From Bacteroidaceae bacterium (lineage in GTDB: Bacteria; Bacteroidota; Bacteroidia; Bacteroidales; Barnesiellaceae_A): 64,000 bases of DNA. The notes under the pieces are model-generated. The model was given only the letters and a program-made list of their open reading frames with translations, had not been told where the DNA came from and searched no databases. This document shows positions 1 to 54,031 of this stretch, one piece after another. The position numbers and the translations under genes were made by a program. Numbering within the stretch: position 1 is the stretch's first letter; every line of letters begins with the position of its first letter. Where the stretch lies: assembly GCA_017410245.1 (NCBI GenBank), contig JAFQRE010000042.1, positions 136,536-200,535 of the forward strand. The letters run 5' to 3'.

Positions 1-11
1 GTAAGGACTGT

Positions 12-530
12 ATGGGGATTGCTGTCAGTCCAGATAGACCTTATGATTGGATATTAAAACAAGTTCTTGCAAGGCTTTACAAAGCGGGGTTCAATGATTT
101 AAAGATTGATGATATCACAATCTGGACTGCTACTAGTGAAGAGATGGCCATGTATAAGAAAGGTGGTGTTAATGTTTTCAATGAAGGTTTCTGTTCTGTA
201 CGCGAGAATGGGAAAATAAAAATTTATATTCAGTCACATCACACAAAAATACATTTTGCAGGTGTATTGGCACATGAATTACTCCATGCTTGGTGTTTCC
301 AGCACGGATTATTCAATATCCCCTCACCTATTGCTGAAGGCATGTGTAATCTTGCAAGTTACTATGTATACCACTCTATAGACTTCCCGCTAGCAAGAAT
401 ATATGAAAGTATGCTCTTTGCCGATGAAGACCCTGTCTATGGAGATGGATTTAAAGCAATGTACAAATTTTATGAGGAACACGGTTGGGATGGTGTTCGC
501 TCAATCGTAATAAATTCAAATAACGAATAA
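12..530 (+). CDS. DA1-like Zn-metallopeptidase domain protein (N-terminus may lie outside the window)
   Basis: 172-aa ORF. The frame stays open back to base 3, so the true start may be upstream. AGVLAHELLHAWCFQHG...AEGMCNLASYY resembles the DA1-like peptidase signature (HEMMHAW...EG.CQ). The stop at 530 is 1 nt before the next start. Confidence 0.6.
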   Translation: MGIAVSPDRPYDWILKQVLARLYKAGFNDLKIDDITIWTATSEEMAMYKKGGVNVFNEGFCSVRENGKIKIYIQSHHTKIHFAGVLAHELLHAWCFQHGLFNIPSPIAEGMCNLASYYVYHSIDFPLARIYESMLFADEDPVYGDGFKAMYKFYEEHGWDGVRSIVINSNNE

Positions 531-531
531 T

Positions 532-1239
532 ATGGGTGTAGAAAGATTTAGAGGAGAATCCGCTCCTAACGCAGAGATGAAGTGTCTTTGTGTTTTAGTT
601 ATGGATGTATCAGGCTCAATGGAACCTTGCATTGAAGAGTTAAATGATGCACTTAGAAATTTTTTCAAAGACATTGAATATGCAAGAGGCTTGCCCGAAT
701 CAACAAAGGATCAATTAGAAATTTGCATATATGCCTTTGATGAAGAAGTAATGTTGAAGCGAAATCCTTGCTTACTTAAACCAGGTGAAGTTCCAGCTAA
801 ATTAAATCAAAGAGGAAGTACAACTGAATCAGTCGCTGCATTGCGAGCCGCTATTCAAATGGTTGAAGATCGCAAAGAGTTTTACAAAGATACAGGCCAA
901 CCATATTATAGACCGTGGATTGTGTTTATGACAGATGGTGAGCCATACCCATATAGAGAAAATGAGATTGCTGAAATCGAGGAACAGATTAGACTTGATG
1001 AAAAGGCAAAAAAATATCGTATAATGGGATTAGGTGTTGGAGAGAATATCTCAGAGAAAACCTTAAGACGACTTACAAATAATAATGCACGTAAATTAAA
1101 AGGAACTAATTTTGGTGCATTCTTCGATTGGTTAAGTAATAGTATGGGCATTATAGTTTCTTCTAAACCTGGTCAAAAAGTAGATATTTCTGCCGGTAGT
1201 GATGAATGGATGTCTAAATTTGATGATTTTGAAGTATGA
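532..1239 (+). CDS. TerY-type von Willebrand factor A (vWA) protein
   Basis: 235 aa. MIDAS motifs are present: VLVMDVSGSM (DxSxS), RGSTTE (Thr) and FMTDGEP (Asp). Size and layout fit stand-alone TerY-like vWA proteins. Confidence 0.8.
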   Translation: MGVERFRGESAPNAEMKCLCVLVMDVSGSMEPCIEELNDALRNFFKDIEYARGLPESTKDQLEICIYAFDEEVMLKRNPCLLKPGEVPAKLNQRGSTTESVAALRAAIQMVEDRKEFYKDTGQPYYRPWIVFMTDGEPYPYRENEIAEIEEQIRLDEKAKKYRIMGLGVGENISEKTLRRLTNNNARKLKGTNFGAFFDWLSNSMGIIVSSKPGQKVDISAGSDEWMSKFDDFEV

Positions 1240-2390
1240 TAAATTTAATAGAAAAGGTAACCTCCTTTTTTAAAAATCAAGTCTTTCAAAATACTCTTGA
1301 TATGGAAAAAAACAAGAGCATATCCAATGATTTTGACATAAATGGTTCTGATGTAATAGAAGATGATGTGGTGGTAACTTCAGAATCAAATAATGATAAT
1401 CCGTCCAATAATATTTCAGAAGAGGGTACTGTTAGCACCCTCTCTGAAAATGTTAAAATAGAAGAGATTCCAATAATATCGGATTCTGTGTCTAAAAATG
1501 ATATAGATGAAATTAATAAAGTTTATTTAAGTACTTTACAGTCCTGTGACAATGGTTATGTTATAGGTGCATCTATTCGTGGACGTTCGCACGAACTACA
1601 TGATACTCCATGTCAAGATTATCATATATTTGAAAAAGTTATAGACGGATGGTACATCCTAGCTGTTTCTGATGGTGCAGGCTCTGCTAAATATGCAGCT
1701 CGAGGAGCTAAAGCAAATAGTACCTTTTCAGTACGATTGGTAAAACAAATGTTGATGGAAAAACGCTGGATAGAAAACGAATATTTCCCGACAGAATTAG
1801 AATGGTATATTGAAGCTCGTGCAATATTTGAACGAATAAAACTAATTATTAGGACAAAAGTATCTGAATTGGAGGAGGAAAGTGTAGAAGCTGATTTTAA
1901 TGCTACGCTTTTGTTAGCAATAGTAACACCTAAAGGAGTTTTAACGGCTCATATTGGTGATGGCCGTATGGGATATTTGTCAGATGATGATGAATGGAAA
2001 GCGATGATGACTCCACATAAAGGAGATGAAGCCAATCAAACAATTTTTTTACAAAGTGGTTGGACGTCTCCTATGGTTCCAGCGTTTAAACTTGGTGGAA
2101 TATTTGTACCAGAAATAACTATTGTACGCGGTATGCCAAAGGCCATTGTTCTAATGAGTGATGGTTGTGAACGTGCATCATGGGAGTGCTCCATTATGGA
2201 TATTGAGAAGGGTAAGTTTGTTGATAATAATATTCCTTATAAGGGGTTTATGAATCCATTAATAGAGGCTTTAGATAGTTGTTCTCACGAAGATAGAATG
2301 CAACTCTTTGTGGATATATTGAACCATGGGACCACGGCCTGCGAGAGAGAATTAGATGATAAAACAATGTTATTAGCAGTATTCAAATGA
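1236..2390 (+). CDS. PP2C-family protein phosphatase with low-complexity N-terminal region
   Basis: 384 aa. ATGA start/stop overlap with the vWA gene. The first ~110 aa are Asn/Ser/Asp-rich. The rest carries PP2C_2-like motifs: GASIRGRSH, CQDYH, LAVSDGAGSA, HIGDGR, LMSDG. Confidence 0.75.
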   Translation: MINLIEKVTSFFKNQVFQNTLDMEKNKSISNDFDINGSDVIEDDVVVTSESNNDNPSNNISEEGTVSTLSENVKIEEIPIISDSVSKNDIDEINKVYLSTLQSCDNGYVIGASIRGRSHELHDTPCQDYHIFEKVIDGWYILAVSDGAGSAKYAARGAKANSTFSVRLVKQMLMEKRWIENEYFPTELEWYIEARAIFERIKLIIRTKVSELEEESVEADFNATLLLAIVTPKGVLTAHIGDGRMGYLSDDDEWKAMMTPHKGDEANQTIFLQSGWTSPMVPAFKLGGIFVPEITIVRGMPKAIVLMSDGCERASWECSIMDIEKGKFVDNNIPYKGFMNPLIEALDSCSHEDRMQLFVDILNHGTTACERELDDKTMLLAVFK

Positions 2391-4084
2391 TATATTATAT
2401 ACACAGACAGGGAAAAGATGTTGCGATTGAAACTGAAACTAAAGAACTAAGCAGTGGCGGACAAGGAAAAATCTATAAAATAAGTTCTCCGTATGAATTC
2501 AAGGATTATTGTGTTAAAATCTACAAAAATAAGAAGCACATAGATGAAAACAAAAATAAAATTCAATATATGATTCTTAATCAGCCGAAAAATATAGATA
2601 TGCATAATATTCGTATTTGTTGGCCTGAATACTCTCTCTATGATAATAAAGGGCAATTTGTGGGGTTTGTAATGAAGTTGGCACTTGGCTTCCCAAAAAG
2701 TAGGGATTTGAAAATTTTAAGTATCTATAGCTTTGGAAAAACTATCAAAGAAAAATATCCTGAATGTAAAGAATGGCACGATAAATTTGAATTAACCAAG
2801 TCTTCTGGAACATTGAACCGGATGAAAATGTTGCATAATTGGGCTTTAGCTGTTGAGTTAATACATGAAACGAAAAAGTATGTGATTGTAGATGTTAAGC
2901 CTGATAATGTTTTAGCTACGGCAGACGGTCGAATTTCAATTGTTGATGCAGACTCATTTCAGATTAATGATGGGGCGAATGTTTATAGAGGGCCAGTTGC
3001 AACGCCTGAATATTTCCCTAAGTTTGCCAAATATATTGAACGACAAAAACGACTTCAAACCATAGATTGTGATAATTTTGCACTAGCTGTCGCTTTTTAT
3101 AAAATTCTTATAGGAACGCATCCCTTTAGTGGTTTTAAATTAAAGCCCCCCTATAATACCGATGAATATGCAGATATTTCATCACATATTGAGGCTGAAT
3201 TGTTTGCATTTGGTAAAAAAACAGATTATATAGAATATTTATCTATAAATAATATGCATGAGCGATATAAAACTCTACCGCTTATTTTAAGAAGTATGTT
3301 TAAATCTGCATTAACAAATCAAAGTAATTTACCCATGGCTACAGAATGGAAAAATGCATTTAAACAAGTTCTGAACGGTCAAGGTGCATTTAAGCCTCAT
3401 GCAGATGTAAAGTTTAATAGTACCCCGAACTCAGAAATGAAATGTCTTTGCGTTTTAGTGTTGGATGTGTCTGGTTCGATGAAATTATGTATTAATAGTT
3501 TAAATGAAGCCCTCGATAAATTTATTCGGGATATACGTAAAGGTGTCAATGGTTTCAATGAAAGTTCGAAGGAATGTATAGAATTATCTATTATCCAATT
3601 TGATAAAGATGTGAAAGTATTGCATTACCCTTCATTAGTAGAACAAATTACCAATATCCCCATCTTAACTGTTCGTGGATTAACCACGAATACCTTGTGT
3701 GCATTGGATACAGCATTCGACGTAGTGGAAAAGAGAAAAAGAGAATATAAAGATTTAGGTATACCCTACTATAGGCCATGGATAATTTTACTTACTGATG
3801 GTAATCCGAATCCACTTAATCAAAATGAACTGAATAAATATGCTTCTAAAATTTCAAATGACATAGCTGAGTATAAATATATGCTAACGGCTATTGGTAT
3901 TGGTGAAAAGATTGATAAAAATATTTTATCAATGTTGAGTGATGGTAATTATAGTTTTATTAAACAAAATGGTTTCTCAAAATTCTTTCAATATTTAAGT
4001 GCTAGTATTAGTAACCCGGATAAGTGTTGTTCTCATGATGATTTGTTAGGAGAAATAGATGATTCTCTATCTATTATGTTGTAG
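2387..4084 (+). CDS. Hanks-type Ser/Thr protein kinase fused to a C-terminal vWA domain
   Basis: 565 aa. ATGA overlap with the PP2C gene. Kinase motifs: GGQGKIYK (G-loop), CVKIYK (beta3 Lys), VDVKPDNVL (catalytic loop), IVDADSF (DFG-like), ATPEYFP (APE-like). The C-terminal half is a second vWA domain (VLVLDVSGSM, RGLTTN, LLTDGNP), clearly paralogous to ORF 532-1239. Confidence 0.8.
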   Translation: MIYYIHRQGKDVAIETETKELSSGGQGKIYKISSPYEFKDYCVKIYKNKKHIDENKNKIQYMILNQPKNIDMHNIRICWPEYSLYDNKGQFVGFVMKLALGFPKSRDLKILSIYSFGKTIKEKYPECKEWHDKFELTKSSGTLNRMKMLHNWALAVELIHETKKYVIVDVKPDNVLATADGRISIVDADSFQINDGANVYRGPVATPEYFPKFAKYIERQKRLQTIDCDNFALAVAFYKILIGTHPFSGFKLKPPYNTDEYADISSHIEAELFAFGKKTDYIEYLSINNMHERYKTLPLILRSMFKSALTNQSNLPMATEWKNAFKQVLNGQGAFKPHADVKFNSTPNSEMKCLCVLVLDVSGSMKLCINSLNEALDKFIRDIRKGVNGFNESSKECIELSIIQFDKDVKVLHYPSLVEQITNIPILTVRGLTTNTLCALDTAFDVVEKRKREYKDLGIPYYRPWIILLTDGNPNPLNQNELNKYASKISNDIAEYKYMLTAIGIGEKIDKNILSMLSDGNYSFIKQNGFSKFFQYLSASISNPDKCCSHDDLLGEIDDSLSIML

Positions 4085-4094
4085 AATAAGATTT

Positions 4095-4259
4095 ATGAGC
4101 AAACTAAAGATTCCTGGAGTTTCATTTTCGTTGAAGCGTGCATTAGGATTGACAAAACTGAAGCAGAAGATTAGTCGCCAGACTGGAATTCCTATGAGTG
4201 AGAGCGGAATAGAGCGTAAATTAGGTAGATTGTTGTTGGATAAAATCTTTAAGAGATAA
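4095..4259 (+). CDS. small basic hypothetical protein (54 aa)
   Basis: This uses the internal ATG of the 66-aa track ORF. Product is MSKLKIPGVSFSLKRALGLTKLKQKISRQTGIPMSESGIERKLG..., Lys/Arg-rich. No family recognised. Confidence 0.35.
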   Translation: MSKLKIPGVSFSLKRALGLTKLKQKISRQTGIPMSESGIERKLGRLLLDKIFKR

Positions 4260-4268
4260 GTTCTTACT

Positions 4269-5093
4269 ATGGATTCTAAAGTAGCCATTCGAGGATTAGA
4301 TATTTCGACCATACTACATCCTGAAGACAAATCGACGATGGATACCCTGAAAAAGATTCCGGGGTTTAAGACTGTTGTTGATAGGACTGTGGGCAGTGTA
4401 ATGGAAAAATATGCTGCGGTTGAATATTCGGGAGAGGGTATCAATGTATCGGAGCAATGCCTTCCTGCTTTGAATAGTCAGATTAGGGAAGCTTGCAGAA
4501 TACTTGACATGCAGGAGATTCCAAATTGCTCTATAAACTGGTTCTACCATATTGGCTCTTTTTCTGTTGGTGAAAAGAGCAAGCGAATGGTTTTTCCATC
4601 TGGTTCAATAGATTTATTGACAGCGGAGGAACTGAATTTCTTGATAGGTCACGAACTGGGGCACATGAAGTGCGGTCATAAAACGTATCATATGTTGACT
4701 GAGGCTATGTATCGTCCGATGGTAGGCTCGGACATGGAATTTATAATGAGTTTGATTAAGATGCCTCTGCTCAATTGGTATCGAGTGTCGGATTTTACGG
4801 CTGACCGTATGGGACTTTTGTGCTGCCAAGATATTGAGGTGGCCATCAAGACTATGATAAAGATGGCCGGATTGCCCAAGAAATACCATAATCAGATTCA
4901 TATTGAGTCTTTCATTCAGCAAGCAATAGATTTCAACAAGAACCATTCCGGTTTTTTTGATGAGATGGTGAAGTATCTTTCTATTAATGCTGCTTGTATG
5001 CCTTGGTTGGTATTGAGAGCCTCTGAGTTATTGATATGGTATCAGTCGGGGGAGTATGATAGAATTTTGAATAAAAGTAAATCCATCAGATAA
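4269..5093 (+). CDS. M48-family Zn-metallopeptidase (soluble type)
   Basis: 274 aa. FLIGHELGHMKCGH is an HExxH motif in the typical M48 context (NAF-like segment, then EL..hhhHElGH). No obvious transmembrane segments. Confidence 0.7.
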   Translation: MDSKVAIRGLDISTILHPEDKSTMDTLKKIPGFKTVVDRTVGSVMEKYAAVEYSGEGINVSEQCLPALNSQIREACRILDMQEIPNCSINWFYHIGSFSVGEKSKRMVFPSGSIDLLTAEELNFLIGHELGHMKCGHKTYHMLTEAMYRPMVGSDMEFIMSLIKMPLLNWYRVSDFTADRMGLLCCQDIEVAIKTMIKMAGLPKKYHNQIHIESFIQQAIDFNKNHSGFFDEMVKYLSINAACMPWLVLRASELLIWYQSGEYDRILNKSKSIR

Positions 5094-5117
5094 AAGTTAA
5101 ACTTAATATTAGTTGTT

Positions 5118-5324
5118 ATGAATGCAAGTGTAAACAATCGGGTTAATCAGGAAAACATTCTTGCGATATTGAACAACAATGTTATCAAGGAAGAGAGTAG
5201 GAAGGAAGCTATGATAGCTATGGGACTTTCGTCTTGTCAGGTGGCTTGTATGTCATATAAATGCTGCACCGGGCATGGTAGTGGAGGAAAACACTCCCGA
5301 CATTCCTATAAGATTAAGCATTAG
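5118..5324 (+). CDS. putative RiPP precursor peptide (68 aa, Cys-containing core)
   Basis: The stop lies 2 nt before the radical SAM start. The N-terminal ~35 aa look leader-like (NQENILAILNNNVIKEESRKEAM). The C-terminal part, SSCQVACMSYKCCTGHGSGGKHSRHSYKIKH, has 4 Cys and a His/Lys-rich tail. Confidence 0.5.
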   Translation: MNASVNNRVNQENILAILNNNVIKEESRKEAMIAMGLSSCQVACMSYKCCTGHGSGGKHSRHSYKIKH

Positions 5325-5326
5325 CA

Positions 5327-6556
5327 ATGGAGATACGGACACGCTCTGGTAATATATACTCTTACAACAAACATACCGGCGAGATTCTTGGCGGTTCTAT
5401 AAGTGCGCAACTTCCTGTGTGGGATTTTGCGCCTTTTGTCTCTTTTGAGTCAATGCCGCAAGTCGATTCGTTTATCTTGGGGATAACAGAGCAATGTAAT
5501 CTTCGTTGTACTTATTGTTGCTACTCCGGGAGCTATGTTAATAAGCGGGTGCACAATATCACCTCTATGGACTCAAGGGGCATTGATGAAATTCTTGCAT
5601 TTATAGATTCATTTACAGGCAAGAGACCGATTAAATTGTTTATATACGGAGGAGAGCCTTTGCTCAACTACAACTTGGTTAAATATACTATTGAAAAATC
5701 TCGCAAACGATGGAGCAATGATGTGAGTTTTACGATCTCCACAAATGGCACGACCTTGACCAAGGAGCGCATTGATTGGTTGGTGGCTAATAATATTGTA
5801 TTGGCTCTATCTATTGATGGGACAAAACCATTTCACGATAGTTATCGAGTAGACGCACAAGGTAATGGTTCATATACGAGAGTTTATGATGCGTTGAAGT
5901 ACATCAAGACAACTTATCCAGAGTATGCAAAAGAGATGTCGTTGATTATGACCCTCGCATCGTTTGACAAGATCGTAGATATTGCGGAGGCGTGGCATAA
6001 TGATGAGATTTTACACGATATGTCACCCACAATGATGAACTCCTTAGCTCCGAATTTCAGCCAAGGTGTTGATCGGGCAGACTACGAAGAGGTGAAAGAG
6101 TTCTACGATACGTTGCTTGATACTTATGAGAAACATCAAGATTGGGTTGTATTGAGAAAGTTATTAGAGTCTTGTGTTGCATACTGGAAAGAGCGCCCAA
6201 TCTTTGAGCCGTCATCTGCTGTGCCTATGGCCACTTGCCTGCCTAATAACACAAAGTTGTACATCGATTCTAACCTTCAGATAGGTGTATGCGAAAAAAT
6301 GTCTGATAACTACCGCATAGGCAATATCAAGGACGGCATTGATTGGGTTAAGGCTAATTCAGTCGTTCGTGATTACTACAATAAGCGAGTTGAGCGTTGT
6401 AAAGATTGTTCTGCTGTTAGAATGTGCAATATGTGCTTGACAGCGATGGAGTATACAGATGAACAATGGGATATCTTGTGTCACAACGAGCTGGTATATA
6501 CTCGAGTGTTTATGTATCTGTTTTGTGAAATGGCAGAAAGAGGTTTGATAAGATGA
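5327..6556 (+). CDS. radical SAM enzyme with C-terminal SPASM-like Cys cluster (peptide-modifying maturase candidate)
   Basis: 409 aa. C57-x3-C61-x2-C64 (EQCNLRCTYCCYSG), a GGEPLL SAM-binding motif, and C-terminal Cys clusters CLPNN...GVCEKM and CKDCSAVRMCNMC. Confidence 0.85.
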   Translation: MEIRTRSGNIYSYNKHTGEILGGSISAQLPVWDFAPFVSFESMPQVDSFILGITEQCNLRCTYCCYSGSYVNKRVHNITSMDSRGIDEILAFIDSFTGKRPIKLFIYGGEPLLNYNLVKYTIEKSRKRWSNDVSFTISTNGTTLTKERIDWLVANNIVLALSIDGTKPFHDSYRVDAQGNGSYTRVYDALKYIKTTYPEYAKEMSLIMTLASFDKIVDIAEAWHNDEILHDMSPTMMNSLAPNFSQGVDRADYEEVKEFYDTLLDTYEKHQDWVVLRKLLESCVAYWKERPIFEPSSAVPMATCLPNNTKLYIDSNLQIGVCEKMSDNYRIGNIKDGIDWVKANSVVRDYYNKRVERCKDCSAVRMCNMCLTAMEYTDEQWDILCHNELVYTRVFMYLFCEMAERGLIR

Positions 6557-7047
6557 GTGTTATTCCCAATGTAAGTACAAAGCATAGTCTGCTTACTCAT
6601 GTATCAGAAGAAGATATGAGCACACTCCGAGAAATCTTCGAGGATGTCGAGACCAAAAGATTTCTTCCAGAGCTATATGAACTATTAGATGCTCCTGCAG
6701 GCTTACAAAAATTTGTTTCAACCTTTGAACTATATTCGCAGAATGGTGAAGGGTATTTGTGGGGCATTTATTGTGATGATACGTTGCTCGGATTTGTCGC
6801 AGTAATAGATTTGTCATACAATCCTTCTCTTTTTTACGCTACCCACCCGGCATATCGTTGTCATGGATATATGAAAGGTGCTATATCGGCTGTCTTAGAT
6901 TATATTGGAAAGAGAAGTCTGTGTCATAATATATCAACCGATGTGTATAAAGCGAATAGCACCTCTATACATATTCTACAACAATTAGGTTTTAGTGTTT
7001 ACAAAGAGGACTGTGATAAAGTTTATTTGTCAAAGGTACTTGCTTAG
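6553..7047 (+). CDS. GNAT-family N-acetyltransferase (RimJ/RimL-like)
   Basis: 164 aa. ATGA overlap with the radical SAM gene. GNAT-like core: LLGFVAVIDL, YRCHGYMKGAISAVLDYI, NSTSIHILQQLGF. Confidence 0.65.
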   Translation: MSVIPNVSTKHSLLTHVSEEDMSTLREIFEDVETKRFLPELYELLDAPAGLQKFVSTFELYSQNGEGYLWGIYCDDTLLGFVAVIDLSYNPSLFYATHPAYRCHGYMKGAISAVLDYIGKRSLCHNISTDVYKANSTSIHILQQLGFSVYKEDCDKVYLSKVLA

Positions 7048-7179
7048 TTTCGAGTCGTTTATTGATAAAACAATGTAGAATAGGGGTTGCTAAAGTAGTT
7101 TGAATGATAGTTTTTTGGTGAGTGTAACCGTCTATATAAGAAAAACAAAAGAAATTATAACATTATAATAATAGTTCAT

Positions 7180-7626
7180 ATGAGTAAATACAATGATTAT
7201 GGAGAATTTATGGTAGCAGTGCTTAATGAGGCTGATTATAAGTGCCATCTAAACTCTTATGGAAGTTTAGTTAAGTTGTTTGGTTTAAGTGGAACCAATG
7301 AAAAGCTGATATCAATTATAATTACAATTTTTGAGATAGGCTGGCCTGCATTTAAGGCGACTTGTGCCTTATTGATTCTTGGACCTATTGCTTTTGTTGG
7401 TGCACTTACAGCATTTATTGTAGGAGGAGTAGGAGCAATCATTGTGGCTGCTTTGGCTATTTACGGTGGAGTAAAAGCAATTCATCTTCTGTATGCCAAC
7501 AAGACAACTCCACTTAAAATATACGAAGTTGGCAAAAAGTACAAACCTCGTTTTGATGATCATATCAATGAGTACTCGTATATTGACAATCTGATTGACG
7601 AAGCTGCAAATGATTTAATAAACTAA
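7180..7626 (+). CDS. small membrane protein, Gly/Ala-rich transmembrane hairpin
   Basis: 148 aa. The hydrophobic stretch ISIIITIFEIGWPAFKATCALLILGPIAFVGALTAFIVGGVGAIIVAALAIYGG predicts 2-3 TM helices with small-xxx-small packing motifs. Confidence 0.5.
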   Translation: MSKYNDYGEFMVAVLNEADYKCHLNSYGSLVKLFGLSGTNEKLISIIITIFEIGWPAFKATCALLILGPIAFVGALTAFIVGGVGAIIVAALAIYGGVKAIHLLYANKTTPLKIYEVGKKYKPRFDDHINEYSYIDNLIDEAANDLIN

Positions 7627-7636
7627 CTCTATAATT

Positions 7637-7891
7637 ATGGCAAATATTAATTACTACAAATGCTCTCGTTGTGGAGAGATTACACGACAAATTGAAATTA
7701 GTCAGAGAGAATTGACTGCTATTGAAGGCGGTGCATGGTGGGAACAAGCTTTTTCAGCTATAAATGATATAGATGGATTATCTTTTTTATTTAGGGAGGC
7801 AGGAATCCTTCGACCATATAAATGTACTAAATGTGGACGTGTTTCTAATAGGTCATTTGGAGGAGATGACAAAGGATATCTTGCTGGATAA
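7637..7891 (+). CDS. zinc-ribbon protein (CxxC...CxxC)
   Basis: 84 aa. The pairs CSRCGE and CTKCGR lie ~55 aa apart. Confidence 0.5.
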   Translation: MANINYYKCSRCGEITRQIEISQRELTAIEGGAWWEQAFSAINDIDGLSFLFREAGILRPYKCTKCGRVSNRSFGGDDKGYLAG

Positions 7892-7912
7892 TAAAGATTA
7901 ACTAAGAACAGA

Positions 7913-8002
7913 ATGATGACTATAAATCCCCTAGGTTGTATTATTGTTGGAGTAGTTTCGGTTGTAGCGATCTATGAGGATACGAAAAAGAATGAACAAT
8001 AA
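7913..8002 (+). CDS. possible 29-aa hydrophobic micropeptide
   Basis: Hand-translated ORF, below the track cutoff: MMTINPLGCIIVGVVSVVAIYEDTKKNEQ. It has one predicted TM helix and a charged tail. There is no other support. Confidence 0.2.
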   Translation: MMTINPLGCIIVGVVSVVAIYEDTKKNEQ

Positions 8003-8114
8003 ATATTGTAGAAATTATCGATGGTTATCGTCTATTTGATAGACCCAAATGTAACACAAGGTATCTTAATCTATTAGTAATAATAAGACAAATAACTAAT
8101 TAATAATAACGATT

Positions 8115-8300
8115 ATGGGCATTATAGGAGCAATATATCATGGAATTAAAGGTGGCTATAAGCTTTTGGTTGATGATTCAGATGCAGCAAGTGAAGAATT
8201 AGACAAGGCTGTTGATAGTCTTCATAAAACCGTTGTTATCGACCCAATTGGAATTAGTGACATACCAGATATCATTGATGATATATCTGAAGAGTGCTAG
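8115..8300 (+). CDS. small acidic hypothetical protein (61 aa)
   Basis: Track ORF with a Gly-rich N-terminus (MGIIGAIYHGIKGG) and a very acidic C-terminus (DIPDIIDDISEEC). Confidence 0.35.
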   Translation: MGIIGAIYHGIKGGYKLLVDDSDAASEELDKAVDSLHKTVVIDPIGISDIPDIIDDISEEC

Positions 8301-8427
8301 ATGCAATAGTGTATCTATATACTCATCTATGCGATGATTAAAGGTAAAGATTTAATTGAGCAAAAGATCCGGGATTCTAAAAACAAGAAGTGATAGGAAG
8401 TTTTCTAAAACCTTAATATTCAAAATT

Positions 8428-8721
8428 ATGGCTTGGAATAGTTTAACAGATAGACAAAAGTCGTTAGACCGTGCTATTGAGCAGTGTGGTGTCAAGTTGG
8501 ATAATTCAGATGCCTGCCTTCGTAGGGTTATGTCTGCAATTGGTGCATCTGTATCAGAAGCTGCTTTCGTTAAGCAACGCATTGAGTTACGACTAAGAAC
8601 TGCTGCGCTACTTGATAAGACCGATGCATTTATTTCAAATACGGAGCAAATGCTTGACCGATTTGAAAAGGACGATGAAGAGTGGCGCAAACGTGCTAAA
8701 AAGCTAGGTATAAATCTTTAA
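8428..8721 (+). CDS. hypothetical protein (97 aa, helical)
   Basis: The track ORF begins at a TTG (8356). The first ATG, at 8428, gives MAWNSLTDRQKSLDRAIEQ.... No family recognised. Confidence 0.4.
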   Translation: MAWNSLTDRQKSLDRAIEQCGVKLDNSDACLRRVMSAIGASVSEAAFVKQRIELRLRTAALLDKTDAFISNTEQMLDRFEKDDEEWRKRAKKLGINL

Positions 8722-8734
8722 AAACAAAATAATT

Positions 8735-8938
8735 ATGGGTATTTTCGTAAATGACAGAGCTTGGAATCTTAAGCAGGCCAAAGATAGAAAAGAACATGGC
8801 GATTGGCATGTTAGAAAGGCTAATGAAGCGTTGAGAAGAGGTGATACTTCGGCTTATAATGACCATATGTACCGTTCAAAAATTTACTATAATGAAGCTG
8901 ATGCATATATGGCTTCTGCTAGAAAATCTACCAAATAA
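8735..8938 (+). CDS. hypothetical protein (67 aa)
   Basis: Track ORF, charged and helical, co-directional with its neighbours. Confidence 0.4.
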   Translation: MGIFVNDRAWNLKQAKDRKEHGDWHVRKANEALRRGDTSAYNDHMYRSKIYYNEADAYMASARKSTK

Positions 8939-9004
8939 TGAGTTTTATATGGCAGTTTTGAGAGGAGTGTTTAAGTTTTCTCATCTATAAGACTATATGC
9001 TACT

Positions 9005-10063
9005 ATGACTAAAGACGCGATTGATCAAATATTCGACCGAGCCCGCCACGGAGATGTCTTTGCCCAAACACTTATGGGGCAAATACTCTGCGAGGGCAAG
9101 TATGTGCAGCAAGATAGGCAGAACGGCATAGGCTGGCTTAGAGATGCAGCGCAGTGTAATTGCTTATACGCAAAGGAACTCATCAATGAGTATTTGAGTG
9201 GGCAAGTAAATGCACCTCATGGCACAACTCATGAACAAAGACCAAACTCAACTGAGGACAATACTGATGTGGATAATCTTGCAGAACTGAAATCGCTGAT
9301 TGGTCTTGAGCGTGTAAAACAAGATGTCGATTCGTTGCGTAACCTTATCAAGATTCAGGCCATGCGTAAGCAACAAGGCTTGCCCAATACTTCGGTATCG
9401 TACCACTGTGTTTTCTCGGGCAACCCCGGTACGGGTAAGACTACGGTTGCTCGCATCGTAGCCGGTATTTATAAAGAGCTTGGCATCTTGAAGAAGGGGC
9501 ACCTTGTAGAAGTAGATCGTTCGAAACTTGTTGGCGAATATGTAGGTCAAACAGCCCCTAAGACCAATAAGGTGATAGATGAGGCTCTCGATGGCGTGCT
9601 ATTTATCGATGAGGCATACACTCTCGTTGGCGAAGGAAGCGATTATGGTGCTGAGGCTATAGCTACTCTGCTCAAACGTATGGAGGACGATCGTGATCGT
9701 TTGGTTGTCATACTTGCCGGTTATACGAATGAGATAAAGGAGTTTATTGACTCCAATCCCGGGTTGCAATCTCGCTTCAATCGTTACATACAGTTTGATG
9801 ACTATTCGGCCGAGGAATTGACCGAGATTTTCAAACGCAACTTGCGCAAGTCGAGATACAAGATTAAGCGTGATGCCTTCGAGGAGTTGCAAAGTGTCAT
9901 TGAGCGTGCTGTCGCCTCACGCGACAAGAACTTCGGTAATGCACGATATGTACGCAACCTTTTTGAGAAGGTTGTTCAGAATCAGGCAAACCGCTTGGCC
10001 AGAATGGCTAGTATTGATAACGATGAGTTGAGTATAATTACTCGCGAAGATATTAACTTCTAA
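9005..10063 (+). CDS. Sel1-repeat + SpoVK/CbbX/EccA-type AAA+ ATPase
   Basis: 352 aa. The N-terminus is Sel1-like (GDVFAQTLMGQILCEGKYVQQDRQNGIGWLRDAAQ). Walker A is GNPGTGKTTVARI and Walker B is GVLFIDEAY. The segments LVGEYVGQTAPKT and RLVVILAGY are typical of the CbbX/SpoVK clade. Confidence 0.85.
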   Translation: MTKDAIDQIFDRARHGDVFAQTLMGQILCEGKYVQQDRQNGIGWLRDAAQCNCLYAKELINEYLSGQVNAPHGTTHEQRPNSTEDNTDVDNLAELKSLIGLERVKQDVDSLRNLIKIQAMRKQQGLPNTSVSYHCVFSGNPGTGKTTVARIVAGIYKELGILKKGHLVEVDRSKLVGEYVGQTAPKTNKVIDEALDGVLFIDEAYTLVGEGSDYGAEAIATLLKRMEDDRDRLVVILAGYTNEIKEFIDSNPGLQSRFNRYIQFDDYSAEELTEIFKRNLRKSRYKIKRDAFEELQSVIERAVASRDKNFGNARYVRNLFEKVVQNQANRLARMASIDNDELSIITREDINF

Positions 10064-10074
10064 CCCAGACGAAT

Positions 10075-10602
10075 ATGGACGAACTAAACAATCTTTTCGG
10101 CGGAGCCGAGCAGTTGTGGCAATATATCAAGATATATGCTGCCAAAGCCGGTCGTGAGGCTACGCGCGTAGTGTTGGAATTGTACTATGTGGTCAAATCA
10201 CCGCATACACCGGCATTGGATAAGACTCTTATCATCGCTGCGCTCGGATATCAACTTCTTCCTAATGACTTAATGAGTCGAGAAAAATATGGTTGGTTGG
10301 GTATCCTTGATAATGGAGCTGCCTTGGCATTAGCATATAATAGAGTTAAAACCCGTGTTACGCCACAAATTGAGGCGCAAGTAGATGCAATACTTGACCA
10401 GTGGTTTGGCTCGGACATACAACAGACTCAAGCTCCCATAGAGCAACCTCAAATAAATAATGACAGTAATAATGGAGGAAACAACTATTGGGAACCACAG
10501 GCCTCAACATTACCCTCTACACTCGATTCCCCTATTAATTCAAATCGTCCTAATACTCCACTGGGAGGTTATAGTGATGATGAAGATGTTGTGATTGATT
10601 GA
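10075..10602 (+). CDS. DUF1232 (YkvA)-like protein with Gln/Asn/Pro-rich tail
   Basis: 175 aa. IIAALGYQLLPNDLMSREKYGWLGILDNGAALALAY resembles the DUF1232 core (Y..sP.DliPD..p.lG.lDD). The C-terminal 60 aa are low complexity. Confidence 0.5.
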   Translation: MDELNNLFGGAEQLWQYIKIYAAKAGREATRVVLELYYVVKSPHTPALDKTLIIAALGYQLLPNDLMSREKYGWLGILDNGAALALAYNRVKTRVTPQIEAQVDAILDQWFGSDIQQTQAPIEQPQINNDSNNGGNNYWEPQASTLPSTLDSPINSNRPNTPLGGYSDDEDVVID

Positions 10603-10666
10603 TGAAGAGTGCAAGGCTTACTGAAATTCTATAATATATAACTATGGTATATAAATTATAAGTATT

Positions 10667-10828
10667 ATGAATCACTATTGTATTATAATTAAAGAAAAAG
10701 ACAGAGAAAAAGAGTGGGTTTGTCACTTGTTTAGAGAGGAGGAATTATCTGAAGAGGATATAATAAGAATTTATGGACTCAAAGATGGAAGTGTTGAATG
10801 GTATTGTATTAATAAAATGAAGGATTAA
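10667..10828 (+). CDS. possible 53-aa ORF
   Basis: Hand-translated: MNHYCIIIKEKDREKEWVCHLFREEELSEEDIIRIYGLKDGSVEWYCINKMKD. It fills an otherwise empty 300-nt gap. No other support. Confidence 0.2.
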   Translation: MNHYCIIIKEKDREKEWVCHLFREEELSEEDIIRIYGLKDGSVEWYCINKMKD

Positions 10829-10906
10829 TACAATATCCTCCTAATACTAATTGAGTGAAACTTTTAGTTCTATGTATAATAATGATATATTGGCAATTAT
10901 AACAAT

Positions 10907-11563
10907 ATGTTTAACAAATTCAGGTGTTGGTTATTCAATCATACTTCTATGAATGAGTTCCTGAAGATGAGTCAACGCTTCAAGAAGTTTGGCTTGTCGC
11001 CCAATGATGTGGAGGACGCTATTAAATCGGCGTGCGATTTCTTTCATATCCCCATGCCTTGTATGATTCAAGACCTGACCAATGTAAAGAATGGGCAGAC
11101 TATGTTTGTAAACTACAATAGAGGTAGTTATGATGATGATGTGTTGTGCTTCAATATGCAACAATTGGTCGATATGAAGGTTGATAGCAAAGAGGCATTC
11201 AGCCTTGTCATGACTCACGAGTGTGCTCATCGTGTATTGCAAAACACACAGTTCCCGGGAGTGAATAATGGCATATGGGAACATGAACTTGCAGCCGACT
11301 TTTTGATGGGCTGTCGTGCCGGACTATGGAATATGGACGAGTCTAAACTTGCAGTGGGGCTAATCCTAACCAATGGAAGCCCCACACACCCCGAAGGTAC
11401 AATAAGGGCTCTTTTTATTCGTCATGGCAAGTATAAGGCGATAGAAATGCGAAATAAATCCATACCATTGACTATTCCCAATTTGCTTAATGAATTTATG
11501 AAGTACCGACAAGAGAACTTAGAACTTATACATCAGTATCAACGAAAGTTTTATAGATTTTAA
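10907..11563 (+). CDS. putative Zn-metallopeptidase (HExxH)
   Basis: 218 aa. LVMTHECAHRVLQN is followed by EHELAADFLMG. The start codon is uncertain, with alternative Met at residues 15 and 21. Confidence 0.5.
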   Translation: MFNKFRCWLFNHTSMNEFLKMSQRFKKFGLSPNDVEDAIKSACDFFHIPMPCMIQDLTNVKNGQTMFVNYNRGSYDDDVLCFNMQQLVDMKVDSKEAFSLVMTHECAHRVLQNTQFPGVNNGIWEHELAADFLMGCRAGLWNMDESKLAVGLILTNGSPTHPEGTIRALFIRHGKYKAIEMRNKSIPLTIPNLLNEFMKYRQENLELIHQYQRKFYRF

Positions 11564-11722
11564 GAAATGGACAGAATAGACATATAGCCATAGTTTTCTC
11601 CCATTATATTCTCATATAAATAAAAATCGGCTATATTTTTATCTGTAAAAGATATTTTTAGCTCGGGTTACTACTCTATACGATAAAAGAGTTGGTAATC
11701 CGAGCTAAAAGTTTATAAAGAC

Positions 11723-13507
11723 ATGAATGCAACATTGAGCATAGGACAAAAGGTTGGAGATTTCTGCGTTGAGGAGTTTGTCAAGACTTCTTCTGATAAT
11801 CGTGGGGAGAGTTACTTCGTAAGTGACAAAGATGGACGTAAGGCGTTGATGAAGTTGTATGCTGCCGACGCCGAAAGTCACACGCTTGAGTGTGAGGTAA
11901 ATACTGTGTTGTCAATAAACTCTGCATTTGTGCCTATGGTTGCAGTCGGAGATATTGAGCATAATGGTGTTGCTTTTCGCTATATTGTTCGCGAGTATGT
12001 CGAAGGTGAACGCTTGTCGGAGATTGTTAAAGCCGGTCGTCTGTATTCGTGGGAGGAGGCTATGCCTATTATCCTGCAAGTATTGAATGCATTGAAGCAT
12101 CTTCACTCGCTAGATAAGGCGATTATTCACAATGATATTACGGCTCGTAACATTCTTATCAATGAAGAAAGGAAACAAGTCTATATCATCGGTATGGGGC
12201 ATATGTCACATCAATGCAATGGTAGGGCAACTTTTTGTACTAAAGACCTGAACAATTGGTATCGTGCTCCTGAGACCTTCAAAGGTATCTACGGTGTGAA
12301 GTCCGACATCTTCTCTGTTGGAGCTTTGTTGTATACGATGCTTGTAGGCTTCGAGCCATGGGGTGTGATTGCTGATGTATATGGCCCCGATGTGGATAAA
12401 AGTATGTTGAAACGTCTTCGCTCTATTGGTGATGAAATCATAGATGATATTCAAATTACCGATGAGCAGAAAGTGATTTTGGGTAAGATGATTGCTCTTG
12501 ATTACGATAAGCGCTATAGCTGTGTCGATGATGTCGTAAAAGGCATAATACATGGTGTTTCAAAAAAGGATCTTCAAGAGTCACCTTGGTATAGAGTGGT
12601 CAATGAAGAAGCCGATGAGGAGGCCGATGTAGAGCTTGACATAGAAGAAGATGTTGACACAGATGCAACAACAAACGGTGTAAACGGAGGCTTTGCCGAT
12701 GTAGCAGGCATGGCCGATGTGAAAAGTATGCTATATAAAGAAGTGATGTTTGTGATGCAAAATAAAGAGAAGGCCCGTAAATACCGCTTGAAAGCACCCA
12801 ATGGTGTGCTCTTCTATGGCCCTCCGGGGTGTGGTAAGACTTTCATTGCCGAAAAGTTTGCCGAGGAGTCGCATCTTAACTTTATGATGGTTAAGGCTTC
12901 TGATTTGGGTAGTATATATATTCATGGTTCTCAAGGTAAGATTGCAGAACTTTTCGATGAGGCGACTAAGAAAGCTCCAACTGTCATTTGCTTTGACGAA
13001 CTTGATGGAATGGTGCCCGATCGTACATCTATTCAGAACGAAGGTTTATCGGGAGAGGTCAATGAGTTTTTGAGTCAGCTTAATAACTGCTCGGATCGTG
13101 GCATCTTTGTGATAGGTACTTCAAATCGTCCGGAGAAGATAGATCCGGCAATACTCCGTACCGGTCGTATGGATAAGATGGTTTATATCCCTATGCCTGA
13201 TGCTGAGGCCCGCAAAGAACTCTTTAAGATTTACCTTGATGACAGATACTGTGACGAAAGTATCGATCTTGATGAGCTTGCTCAGAAAAGCGAAGGGTAT
13301 GTTGCTAGTGACATAAGTTTTATGGCAAACGAGAGTGCGCTGGAGGCGGCAATGGCTGATGTGCCTATAACTCAAGATTTGGTTCTTGGAGTGATGCGCA
13401 AAGCTCGCCGTTCGGTAACGCAAAATGACGCTGCCGACTATGAACGTATGCGTAAGAAATTTGAGCAGCAAAGCTATAGCCATGAACGCCACAGAATTGG
13501 ATATTAA
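11723..13507 (+). CDS. protein-kinase-like domain fused to classical AAA ATPase (copy 1)
   Basis: 594 aa. N-half is a eukaryotic-like kinase fold: ALMKLY, IIHNDITARNILI, YRAPE, SDIFSVGALLYTML. The DFG position reads IIGMGH. An acidic linker follows (EEADEEADVELDIEEDVDTD). C-half is a classical AAA module: Walker A GPPGCGKT, Walker B VICFDELD, sensor-1 GTSNRP, SRH/Arg finger PAILRTGRMD. Confidence 0.85.
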   Translation: MNATLSIGQKVGDFCVEEFVKTSSDNRGESYFVSDKDGRKALMKLYAADAESHTLECEVNTVLSINSAFVPMVAVGDIEHNGVAFRYIVREYVEGERLSEIVKAGRLYSWEEAMPIILQVLNALKHLHSLDKAIIHNDITARNILINEERKQVYIIGMGHMSHQCNGRATFCTKDLNNWYRAPETFKGIYGVKSDIFSVGALLYTMLVGFEPWGVIADVYGPDVDKSMLKRLRSIGDEIIDDIQITDEQKVILGKMIALDYDKRYSCVDDVVKGIIHGVSKKDLQESPWYRVVNEEADEEADVELDIEEDVDTDATTNGVNGGFADVAGMADVKSMLYKEVMFVMQNKEKARKYRLKAPNGVLFYGPPGCGKTFIAEKFAEESHLNFMMVKASDLGSIYIHGSQGKIAELFDEATKKAPTVICFDELDGMVPDRTSIQNEGLSGEVNEFLSQLNNCSDRGIFVIGTSNRPEKIDPAILRTGRMDKMVYIPMPDAEARKELFKIYLDDRYCDESIDLDELAQKSEGYVASDISFMANESALEAAMADVPITQDLVLGVMRKARRSVTQNDAADYERMRKKFEQQSYSHERHRIGY

Positions 13508-13536
13508 TATATTGTATAACTTAAATACGTGAAGAC

Positions 13537-13917
13537 ATGAAAATGATTGACAAAGTAATGAATGAGTTGCAGAAACAAGGTTTTCTGCCCCAACGTGAAG
13601 ACTTCGGTATTGCTTTCAAGTACCAAATGGCCGGTTACCTCTTTTTGGCCGATAAGACTGACGATGACTACTTCAGTCTTTATATCCCGTACTTCTTTGA
13701 GGTAGATGAGGAGAATAAAGCAGATGTGCTTGAGGCCATGAATGCTATCAATAATGACGTGAAAGTGGTAAAACTTGTGATTAATGATGGTTATGTATGG
13801 GCTTGTTTTGAAGAAAAGTTACCGGAAAATGCCAATATAGAGGACATTTTATTTTATTCTATTGTAACTTTGTACCTTTCTCGTCAGCAATTTTACGAGA
13901 AGTTGAAAGAGGTATAA
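13537..13917 (+). CDS. hypothetical protein (126 aa; faint YbjN/chaperone-like resemblance)
   Basis: Track ORF 30 nt downstream of the kinase-AAA gene. A hairpin plus T-run follows at 13955-13992. The family assignment is not secure. Confidence 0.45.
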   Translation: MKMIDKVMNELQKQGFLPQREDFGIAFKYQMAGYLFLADKTDDDYFSLYIPYFFEVDEENKADVLEAMNAINNDVKVVKLVINDGYVWACFEEKLPENANIEDILFYSIVTLYLSRQQFYEKLKEV

Positions 13918-13954
13918 CAACGATATATGTGTGTGCCTAAGGTCGGATTTCCCG

Positions 13955-13992
13955 GCTCTACCGTGTGGGTATATCTTGCAGTAGAGCTTTTT
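13955..13992 (+). terminator. possible terminator after ORF 13537-13917
   Basis: GCTCTAC (13955-13961) pairs with GTAGAGC (13981-13987), followed by T5. The loop is long (19 nt). Confidence 0.4.
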
Positions 13993-14080
13993 AAGATGAC
14001 GCCGTCTTATTTTATTATATCCCAAGTGGTGCGAGTGCCACTTGGGGGCAACTGAAAAGCAATATTAAAACATTAATAGT

Positions 14081-14482
14081 ATGAATGCAATAATTAGTTA
14101 CCATGAGATTTCGGATTTTGTAGAGAGGGAGTTTAAGGTACGTCCCAATTTTACTACTGTGGATAAAAAGACTATTGAGGTTAGTTACAAACCCAATATG
14201 TTTATGCCGGCTATAGCTGTCAAGTTTCATATTGAGGCGATGCGTCGTGATGTCATCTGTATGACATATGATTGTAGTGCTCCTACCTCTATGATGATTG
14301 CCGGTGTTGTTGCTTTTCTTGAGGAGAAGATTCCGAGTGGTATTGATGTGAACACTACCGACAAGCGTGTCAATATCTATGTGCAACGATTGAATCAATT
14401 GGAGAAGGTGCTTGAGTATGTGACATTGTCTGATATCTCTTTTGAAGACAATTCGGTCAATATTGCTCTTTCAATAGTGTAG
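14081..14482 (+). CDS. hypothetical protein (133 aa)
   Basis: Track ORF; no motif recognised. The overlapping minus-strand ORF 14015-14398 was judged spurious. Confidence 0.45.
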   Translation: MNAIISYHEISDFVEREFKVRPNFTTVDKKTIEVSYKPNMFMPAIAVKFHIEAMRRDVICMTYDCSAPTSMMIAGVVAFLEEKIPSGIDVNTTDKRVNIYVQRLNQLEKVLEYVTLSDISFEDNSVNIALSIV

Positions 14483-14560
14483 TTATCGAACTTTCAAGGC
14501 TCTGTGACTATCCTTGGAGTGTATCGGTAAGTCGTGTGTTTCATTATAAGTTTTAGTTTT

Positions 14561-53952: not shown

Positions 53953-54023
53953 TGTCCTGTGGTGTAATGGTAGCACTCCAGATTCTGGCTCTGTCAGTGA
54001 GGGTTCGAATCCTTCCAGGACAA
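53953..54023 (+). tRNA. tRNA-Gln (anticodon CUG)
   Basis: Hand-folded, 71 nt. The acceptor stem is TGTCCTG/CAGGACA and the D arm is GTGT-AATGGTA-GCAC. The anticodon arm is CCAGA-TTCTGGC-TCTGT, with a 27:43 C-U mismatch. The T arm is GAGGG-TTCGAAT-CCTTC and the discriminator is A. CCA is not encoded. Confidence 0.85.
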
Positions 54024-54031
54024 CACGAAAT

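Follow-up and report, generated by a model that had tools for sequence, protein, structure and literature searches.

The 64,000-nucleotide stretch of Bacteroidaceae bacterium contig JAFQRE010000042.1 analyzed here (the window) opens with four co-directional genes at positions 1-4084. They encode, in order, the catalytic part of a peptidase combining a LIM-type zinc finger with a DA1-like domain, a stand-alone von Willebrand factor A (vWA) protein of the TerY/YegL type, a PP2C-type Ser/Thr phosphatase, and a Hanks-type Ser/Thr kinase that carries another vWA domain as a fusion (kinase::vWA; Table 1). An earlier interpretation of the letters alone (hereafter, the sequence-only reading) had presented these genes as a translationally coupled, four-part expansion of the TerY-P triad of vWA, PP2C and kinase. 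The open reading frames (ORFs) and their junctions are arranged as it had described: a single base separates the TAA stop of the peptidase gene (528-530) from the ATG of the vWA gene at 532, while ATGA overlaps join vWA to PP2C (1236-1239) and PP2C to the kinase gene (2387-2390). The unit itself, however, turned out to be larger than four genes, as these form the 3' part of a six-gene core within a same-strand array of ~24 kb. Our model, to which we assign a probability of about 55%, is that this core belongs to a horizontally acquired island of an uncultured Bacteroidaceae genome and works as a conflict system associated with the membrane, probably directed against phages, in which a threshold-gated phospho-switch governs a latent protease.

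The peptidase gene is indeed cut by the window edge, since no in-frame stop codon lies 5' of position 12 in ORF 12-530. We used contig L001, which overlaps the window by 11,239 bases with 1 mismatch, as a stand-in for the DNA upstream of the window. In L001 the full peptidase gene (L001:9295-9999), which begins 175 nt ahead of the window, codes for 234 aa; the ATG at window position 12 corresponds to the internal Met63, and the 58 codons for the N-terminal LIM-type zinc finger fall upstream of the window. In an exact-protein look-up, 13 public contigs proved to carry the vWA gene, and the near-identical neighbors are Bacteroidaceae or Bacteroidales metagenome-assembled genomes (MAGs). On the 5' side, 5 nt separate the end of a DUF4407 gene from the start of the peptidase gene; on the 3' side of the kinase gene, the gaps measure 10, 9, 24 and 2 nt and are followed by an ATGA overlap at 6553-6556. 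This tight spacing on both flanks indicates that positions 1-4084 are a slice of a larger unit, and the 3' end of the array lies near window position 15,100.

We consider the identity of the parts almost certain. Pfam profiles matched the proposed DA1-like, VWA, PP2C_2 and Pkinase plus VWA domains, and every motif that had been quoted was present: HELLHAW in the peptidase, GGQGKIYK, VKIY, DVKPDN, DADSF and TPEY in the kinase, and a complete metal ion-dependent adhesion site (MIDAS). An NCBIfam scan of the four window genes added nothing specific. For the peptidase, PF12315 scored above its gathering cut-off of 25 both on the window fragment (36.3 bits) and on the full-length protein (35.2 bits); the match on the fragment is short, with 38 residues aligned around the HExxH motif, which occupies residues 88-92 of the window ORF and is accompanied by a downstream Glu ligand. 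In the 234-aa protein, the catalytic part carries H150-E151-x-x-H154, E171 and a YGDGF motif, and an alignment of 25 diverse sequences showed H150, E151, E171, Y205, G206 and G208 to be invariant and H154 nearly so. The N-terminal region contains eight conserved zinc ligands with LIM-like spacing (C4, C7, C25, H28, C38, C41, C59 and C62). The LIM profile PF00412 gave no match on the subfamily of the window peptidase, although it scored above its cut-off for homologous multi-LIM relatives.

A profile search recovered 78 clusters of this peptidase family, nearly all of them pre-annotated as PF12315 and the distant ones also as PF00412. PF12315 scored 38-55 bits on the relatives, reaching profile positions 32-125, and for one of the clusters NCBI gives the name 'protein DA1 [Prevotella sp.]'. 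The AlphaFold 2 (AF2) model of an 82%-identical homologue, with a pLDDT score (predicted local distance difference test) of 96, has short β-hairpins at its N-terminus and, at its C-terminus, a β-sheet with two long helices bearing the HExxH motif and the Glu ligand, which fits a gluzincin core. When the peptidase model was compared with the PDB using Foldseek, no match reached E <= 0.001 (best E 0.07; weak zincin matches and the FHL2 LIM domain, E 1.3). The peptidase profile likewise found nothing significant among PDB sequences, with the LIM domain of EPLIN as the best match (E 0.58). As no PDB structure matched significantly, the DA1-like assignment rests on sequence profiles and motifs; judging from the Foldseek result, the PDB seems to hold no DA1-like structure.

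The other three products resemble the components of the TerY-P triad. The stand-alone vWA protein matches Pfam VWA (E 4e-7) as well as VWA_2, and its MIDAS is conserved across lineages; the complete site (DVSGSM...TT...TDG) is present in both the stand-alone and the kinase-fused vWA domains. A tblastn search against plasmids returned vWA genes of ~200-220 aa from vWA-PP2C-kinase triads, with E values down to 6e-20, among them the vWA gene of pQBR103, which sits in such a triad and matched at E 9e-20. The E. coli matches (~33% identity), which fall in stretches without gene-level annotation, are most likely YegL, and IMG names members of the vWA cluster 'uncharacterized protein YegL'. These matches, together with the operon of a relative that carries Pfam TerY_C, uphold the proposed TerY-P affinity. 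The phosphatase has a low-complexity N-terminal region of ~110 aa followed by its catalytic domain (PP2C_2, E 1.8e-33, residues 115-356), whose motifs RGxSH, CQD, SDGAGS, GDGR, SDG and DDKT are kept in eight lineages.

Within kinase::vWA, the kinase extends over residues ~1-335 (Pkinase match 144-253) and the vWA domain over ~345-540 (VWA match 356-526), and no transmembrane (TM) segment is predicted. Across five lineages, the kinase motifs (GGQG, the VAIK-type Lys, D-x-K-P-x-N, VDxDS and ATPEY) show no variation. The fused vWA domain is 41% identical to the stand-alone protein (E 3e-53), indicating that it is a paralogue. Among 1.84 billion representatives clustered at 50% identity, only two other clusters, 65% and 51% identical, matched kinase::vWA from end to end, while 437 representatives, ranging in length from 315 to >1,000 aa, matched just the ~330-aa kinase module (E <= 1e-30). 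We observed many different C-termini in 66 relatives of the kinase module: SH3_3 in 15, Sel1 in 6 and TonB_C in 4, followed by WG repeats, FGE-sulfatase, BACON, RDD, TPR, PASTA, PEGA and others, with vWA found only in the two close clusters. This variety suggests that the kinase has a variable C-terminal slot in which a vWA domain is rare. Both departures from the triad that had been noted are real, namely the kinase::vWA fusion and the DA1-type peptidase gene coupled upstream.

The two further core genes lie outside the window. The first, 5' of the DUF4407 gene, encodes an 836-aa GTPase with only faint Pfam matches (Dynamin_N, E 4e-4, and MMR_HSR1). Its AF2 model (pLDDT 87.9) matched SynDLP (E 3.8e-10) and Nostoc BDLP (1e-8) in Foldseek, and also the Campylobacter DLP1/2 pair, IniA, MxA, dynamin, Drp1 and LeoA. 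The P-loop GxxRxGKS and the DTPG motif are invariant in the alignment, and an NKxD motif was read from the sequence. By its predicted fold, this protein is a bacterial dynamin-like protein (BDLP). The second gene encodes a multi-pass DUF4407 protein of 700 aa (PF14362, E 9e-44), the sole core protein with predicted TM segments. Its N-terminal region varies by lineage, with an InlB-B-repeat-like domain in one and collagen repeats in others, and the length of the protein varies between 607 and 1,101 aa.

We then come to the evidence that joins these genes into one system. The sequence-only reading had named beforehand the conservation of the linkage in other genomes as a test of its proposal, and we found the linkage kept in ten independent lineages, two of them with an altered order. 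For this comparison, in-house hidden Markov models (HMMs) were built per domain, as the fusion proteins mixed kinase and vWA signals. In the window lineage, the order of the core is BDLP-DUF4407-LIM-peptidase-vWA-PP2C-kinase::vWA, and all five members of the closest group (the window with L001, L007, L008, L011 and L014; peptidase identity 48-100%) have the six genes in this order. In L045, from Hadza gut, and in L046, the order is BDLP-DUF4407-vWA-PP2C-kinase-peptidase, the BDLP is 24-29% identical and the kinase is unfused. A second group (L017, L018/L019 and L020; peptidase 28-37% identical) has the peptidase with the triad and lacks BDLP and DUF4407. Within it, L017 has in addition a Pfam TerY_C gene, a kinase-zinc-ribbon gene and GrpE/HSP70, a kinase-SH3-TonB_C protein and a pair of vWA genes occur in L018, and in L020 the peptidase gene is divergently transcribed from the triad. 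At L015, a LIM-less relative adjoins a vWA gene and is itself near a kinase. In total, all six genes occur together in seven lineages, and the peptidase with the triad in ten.

These data bear directly on the simplest alternative, in which the locus would amount to no more than a TerY-P triad, with the peptidase, BDLP and DUF4407 genes belonging to an unrelated neighboring operon and the spacing being incidental. Canonical triads work alone according to the account of Gao 2020 given in later papers, and Pfam pre-annotation leaves the peptidase unflagged in some loci; thus, L045 and L046 first looked peptidase-free in the precomputed labels, which was ruled out when the family HMM matched a gene just 3' of the kinase in each (E 4e-27 and 3e-34). 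However, the linkage extends over ten lineages, down to ~28% peptidase and 24% BDLP identity, and it survives the move of the peptidase gene to the 3' side of the kinase. Moreover, the genes lie 1-5 nt apart or overlap by ATGA, and a terminator consensus scan found no terminator-like site in the short gaps between the core genes. More generally, the promoter and terminator consensus scans returned counts close to the shuffled expectation, the sigma-70 consensus being unsuited to Bacteroidota. We give this alternative very little credence. The persistence of the linkage across deep divergence and through the relocation of the peptidase indicates a functional association and not chance, and it is highly probable that the peptidase is functionally linked with the triad.

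Only in the ~230-250-aa single-LIM branch of the family is the peptidase associated with the triad. Other LIM-DA1-like proteins, at L022 and L025-L036, have 270-440 aa with extra N-terminal sequence, come from several, mostly marine, metagenomes and have no kinase, PP2C or vWA neighbors; their closest protein relatives carry two or three LIM repeats. From these longer forms without a triad, we conclude that bacterial DA1-like proteins fall into at least two classes by genomic context. The BDLP and DUF4407-like pair was also seen without a triad, at L044, where HSP70-like and TIR-Macro proteins lie nearby.

The composition of the region fits horizontal acquisition of the core. The six core genes have a GC content of 32-37% (34.3% for the four window genes) and the island as a whole (window 1-15,100) has 38.1%, compared with 44.5% for window 15,107-64,000; the GC content is put at ~8-10 points below that of the chromosome. 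From lineage to lineage, the flanking genes and genomic locations differ, and accessory genes are exchanged. The remainder of the window has an ordinary chromosomal content, with genes for DnaK, IleRS, PurL, ABC-F, a TonB-dependent receptor, RecQ and tRNA-Gln; it also holds a 2,077-aa surface-type protein (Table 1).

On L001, the array is preceded by a strong terminator (L001:157-186), and its genes run in the order NusG-like factor, ECF-type (extracytoplasmic function) sigma factor, anti-sigma-like ORF, DnaJ-zinc-finger lipoprotein, two M48 peptidases, BDLP, DUF4407 and the LIM-peptidase. The first three, at L001:808-2404, head the ~24-kb array; the NusG-like factor is UpxY-like, and the third, a short ORF, resembles an anti-sigma factor in its sequence. 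These regulators at the array head suggest dedicated transcriptional control together with anti-termination. They are also among the observations that speak for another explanation, ordinary envelope or membrane-homeostasis signaling in place of a conflict system, in which the eukaryote-like kinase and phosphatase would regulate membrane repair by the BDLP and the peptidase would turn over a signaling component. A NusG-like factor with an ECF-type sigma/anti-sigma pair is found in envelope-stress regulons, the BDLP model matches IniA, and BDLP relatives such as IniA have a role in membrane maintenance. In addition, the kinase family commonly has envelope-binding C-termini (SH3_3 in 15/66, TonB_C, PASTA, PEGA). 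Nevertheless, the distribution of the system is very patchy: patterns specific to the closest group gave 1 match in 185,579 GTDB species genomes, and only 30-78 protein clusters were found among 5.8 billion. The low GC content, the differing locations and the swapped accessories are likewise marks of accessory, mobile DNA. We therefore regard the envelope explanation as unlikely. The sole GTDB genome match is L007 (CAAFXG010000290.1), labeled 'Lachnospiraceae bacterium' MAG HGM12091, whose proteins are ~75% identical to those of a Bacteroidaceae MAG; this could reflect a mis-binned contig or a recent transfer.

Downstream of the kinase gene, the array continues with accessory genes (Table 1), with several small ORFs between the GNAT gene and the SpoVK-like AAA+ gene. 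Counting the upstream genes, the island encodes five putative metallopeptidases: the LIM-DA1 protein, three M48 proteins and the 218-aa HExxH protein. Around the core, the accessory genes vary between loci and include M48, rSAM-GNAT with a peptide, AAA+ with its partner, a cation ATPase, CHAT, FGE-sulfatase, HSP70 and TIR-Macro. The pair of AAA+ and its 175-aa partner (P175) adjoins the core in L008 and L011/L012; in L045 the AAA gene lies at the array end and a P175-like ORF upstream on the opposite strand.

Table 1 Features of the window. Positions are those of the 64,000-nucleotide window; rSAM, radical S-adenosylmethionine.
Feature	Position	Strand	Match or remark
LIM + DA1-like peptidase, C-terminal 176 codons (catalytic domain)	1..530	+	PF12315
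Stand-alone TerY/YegL-type vWA, 235 aa	532..1239	+	Pfam VWA + VWA_2
PP2C-type Ser/Thr phosphatase, 384 aa	1236..2390	+	PF13672 PP2C_2
Hanks-type Ser/Thr kinase::vWA fusion, 565 aa	2387..4084	+	Pkinase (PF00069) + VWA
54-aa basic ORF	starts 4095, within 4095..7047	+	tight spacing
Soluble M48 peptidase	4269-5093	+	
68-aa Cys-rich peptide (…CQVACMSYKCCTGHGSGG…)	5118-5324	+	
rSAM/SPASM peptide maturase	5327-6556	+	NCBIfam CcpM-like TIGR04068, E 1.6e-54, below its cut-off
GNAT	6553-7047	+	ATGA overlap with maturase
SpoVK-like AAA+	9005-10063	+	Pfam AAA + AAA_lid_6
175-aa DUF1232-like AAA+ partner (P175)	10075-10602	+	Pfam
218-aa HExxH protein (THECAHRV)	10907-11563	+	no Pfam match
Pkinase-AAA (CDC48-like) fusion, 594 aa	11723-13507	+	Pfam, AAA_lid_3
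Surface-type protein, 2,077 aa	46575-52808	-	Fn3_assoc, CHB_HEX_C_1, Big_5, CopC-like domains
tRNA-Gln(CTG)	53953-54024		
Second Pkinase-AAA paralogue, 602 aa	61019-62827		

The Cys-rich peptide, the rSAM/SPASM maturase beginning 2 nt after it and the GNAT gene (window 5118-7047) have the appearance of a RiPP-like module, RiPP standing for ribosomally synthesized and post-translationally modified peptide. In L007, L008 and L045, rSAM and GNAT form a single fused protein. One might thus see the whole locus as the arm of a RiPP cluster that handles regulation and processing, in which the LIM-peptidase and M48 would process the 68-aa precursor, the switch would control production or export, and BDLP with DUF4407 would serve secretion or self-protection. 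A precursor-like peptide, the CcpM-like maturase, GNAT and M48 do lie in the same tight array, rSAM-GNAT/peptide/M48-type modules recur in L007, L008, L045 and L046, and conflict systems coupled to modified-peptide modules have been described (PMC7159879). Against this, the six-gene core occurs without rSAM, GNAT or precursor in L011-L014, and the peptidase with the triad is likewise free of them in L017, L018 and L020, the modules as such being absent from L011-L014 and L017-L020. Since the core is kept without the RiPP genes, this module looks accessory and not central, and we judge it quite unlikely that the locus is built around peptide modification.

The two Pkinase-AAA proteins of the window are 44% identical and their genes lie 47 kb apart. 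In L030 and L038, Pkinase-AAA orthologues of ~40% identity were found at a distance of 2-3 kb from LIM-DA1-like peptidases, while L014 has a partial one of 31% identity. This proximity suggests a second recurrent association between LIM-peptidases and kinases.

Returning to our model of a phospho-switch with a latent protease, we hypothesize that the kinase, PP2C and the two paralogous vWA domains would constitute a threshold switch based on reversible Ser/Thr phosphorylation, as in TerY-P and in YegI/PphC/YegL. The MIDAS sites of the vWA domains may bind the trigger or hold the complex together. The switch would keep the LIM-peptidase latent or free it, either directly or via assembly, and the LIM finger would dock the peptidase on its target. 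The peptidase would then cleave a component of the system, most likely DUF4407 in its cytoplasmic part, BDLP or one of the accessory proteins. Such a cleavage may alter the membrane through BDLP and DUF4407, leading either to repair and sealing or to a suicidal disruption. The specific step in which the kinase gates the protease is the doubtful part of this scheme. A role in conflict or defense, taken by itself, seems to us evenly balanced; of the overall roles, defense against a phage or another envelope-attacking agent is the likeliest.

Several observations weigh against this model. The triad is absent at L022 and at 19 metagenome loci encoding more distant, mostly longer multi-LIM forms of the peptidase; three of these triad-less loci have kinase-AAA fusions nearby and one has an adjacent DUF4407 gene. 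The alignment revealed no Ser or Thr conserved across the whole peptidase family, so that direct phosphoregulation of the peptidase is not indicated by its sequence. The sister kinases often have envelope-binding C-termini (SH3_3, TonB_C, PASTA, PEGA), which would fit envelope signaling equally well. Finally, the window contains no classical defense genes beside the island, the remainder being housekeeping, and no relatives of the peptidase or BDLP were found in IMG/VR, leaving the model without mobile-element support of that kind.

Prokaryotic LIM domains were reportedly described as partners of peptidases by Burroughs in 2011. A full-text literature search on DA1-like with vWA, TerY with metallopeptidase, DUF4407, and dynamin-like with PP2C and von Willebrand returned nothing relevant, in a corpus that did not cover the 2011/2012 primary papers of the Aravind laboratory. 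Apparently, a conserved version of TerY-P with a DA1-like protease is undescribed. To our knowledge, TerY-P is among the least understood of the validated anti-phage modules, and we know of no established trigger or output for it. A variant wired to a candidate output protease and a membrane-remodeling pair thus provides testable candidates for the target of the phospho-switch. The host clade consists of gut or rumen Bacteroidales, in which, as far as we know, few defense systems have been characterized experimentally.

The TerY-P triad is said to have been described by Anantharaman, Iyer and Aravind in 2012. As in that triad, vWA, PP2C and kinase are all present here, adjacent and with intact catalytic residues. 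In contrast, the C-terminus of the kinase is a vWA paralogue and not the zinc ribbon of CoCoNuT-type triads or the OB-fold of Gao-type ones, the LIM-DA1 peptidase is an obligate neighbor, and BDLP and DUF4407 are part of the conserved core of the window lineage. The sequence-only reading had expected the TerY-P models of PADLOC to match three of the genes. No such matches were obtained, and as the control triads of pQBR103, L017 and L018 were likewise unrecognized, this outcome is uninformative: PADLOC gave no match on vWA, peptidase, BDLP or DUF4407, a weak one to PDC-M21C on PP2C (E 0.014), and generic kinase models only on the kinase. TerY-P-like modules protect against T7-like phages, as Gao 2020 is reported in PMC11090510 and PMC7699616. 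In the corresponding E. coli locus, PphC (YegK) dephosphorylates autophosphorylated YegI, and yegL encodes a vWA protein (bioRxiv 10.1101/303594).

In the Type II/III-A CoCoNuTs (PMC11090510), which have an embedded TerY-P triad, duplicated TerY-like vWA genes flank a SpoVK-type AAA+. The island shares with them the triad, the presence of two TerY-like vWA domains and, in the same array, a SpoVK-like AAA+ accompanied by a small partner. It differs in that one vWA is fused to the kinase. The AAA+/partner pair at window 9005-10602 recalls the SpoVK-type extension between the TerY-like vWA genes of Type III-A CoCoNuTs. Membership in the CoCoNuTs was rejected, as the Pfam annotations of the scanned island ORFs included no McrB/McrC, CnuH helicase or HEPN nuclease. 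In Actinobacteria, GTPase-centered conflict systems recruit the kinase/PP2C/vWA triad and are coupled to modified-peptide modules (Kaur, Burroughs, Iyer & Aravind 2020, PMC7159879). The third theme of that work, DO-GTPase/GAP1-N2, resembles our locus in being GTPase-centered and membrane-proximal, with the triad, variable accessories and peptide-modification or peptidase modules. However, the GTPase is dynamin-like here, the hosts are Bacteroidales and not Actinobacteria, and the LIM-peptidase and DUF4407 do not occur in the described system. Membership was rejected in this case too: the 836-aa GTPase has no match to the DO-GTPase model or of PF19993 type, and no GAP1-like gene was seen. A DO-GTPase2 (PF19993) gene lies a few genes 5' of the BDLP core at L046:2357-3406. 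With the bacterial dynamin-like proteins (Nostoc BDLP, SynDLP, Campylobacter DLP1/2, IniA, LeoA), the core GTPase shares its predicted fold and the GTPase motifs, although the sequence similarity is barely detectable, no paddle TM is predicted, and DUF4407 takes the place of a second DLP as partner.

As far as we know, functions of the DA1 family have been established only in plants, where it controls organ size, is under regulation by receptor kinases and acts as an integrated decoy in a nucleotide-binding leucine-rich repeat (NLR) immune receptor. The plant DA1/DAR proteins (PF12315) have ubiquitin-interacting motifs (UIMs), LIM and peptidase, and the bacterial protein resembles them in its HExxH...E zincin with YGDGF, preceded by a LIM-like finger. 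It is different in its much shorter length of 234 aa, in its single LIM-like finger, in beginning at the zinc finger, in lacking UIMs, and in having no ubiquitin-system gene among the scanned island ORFs. Plant DA1, a latent peptidase, is subject to inhibition through BRI1/BAK1 phosphorylation (bioRxiv 10.1101/2020.05.15.098178), and it cleaves a receptor kinase (PMC9546594). This regulation by receptor-kinase phosphorylation parallels the genomic coupling to a kinase and a phosphatase that we observed here. In a tentative and wider hypothesis, the locus would represent a six-component family of Bacteroidales defense or abortive-infection systems, in which a DA1-type latent protease is phospho-switched to remodel or rupture the membrane, and its pairing of protease and kinase would be the prokaryotic antecedent of the relation between DA1 and receptor kinases in plants. 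The locus gives the DA1 family a bacterial context, and a bacterial DA1 coupled to a kinase would point to a partnership of protease and kinase that is older than plants.

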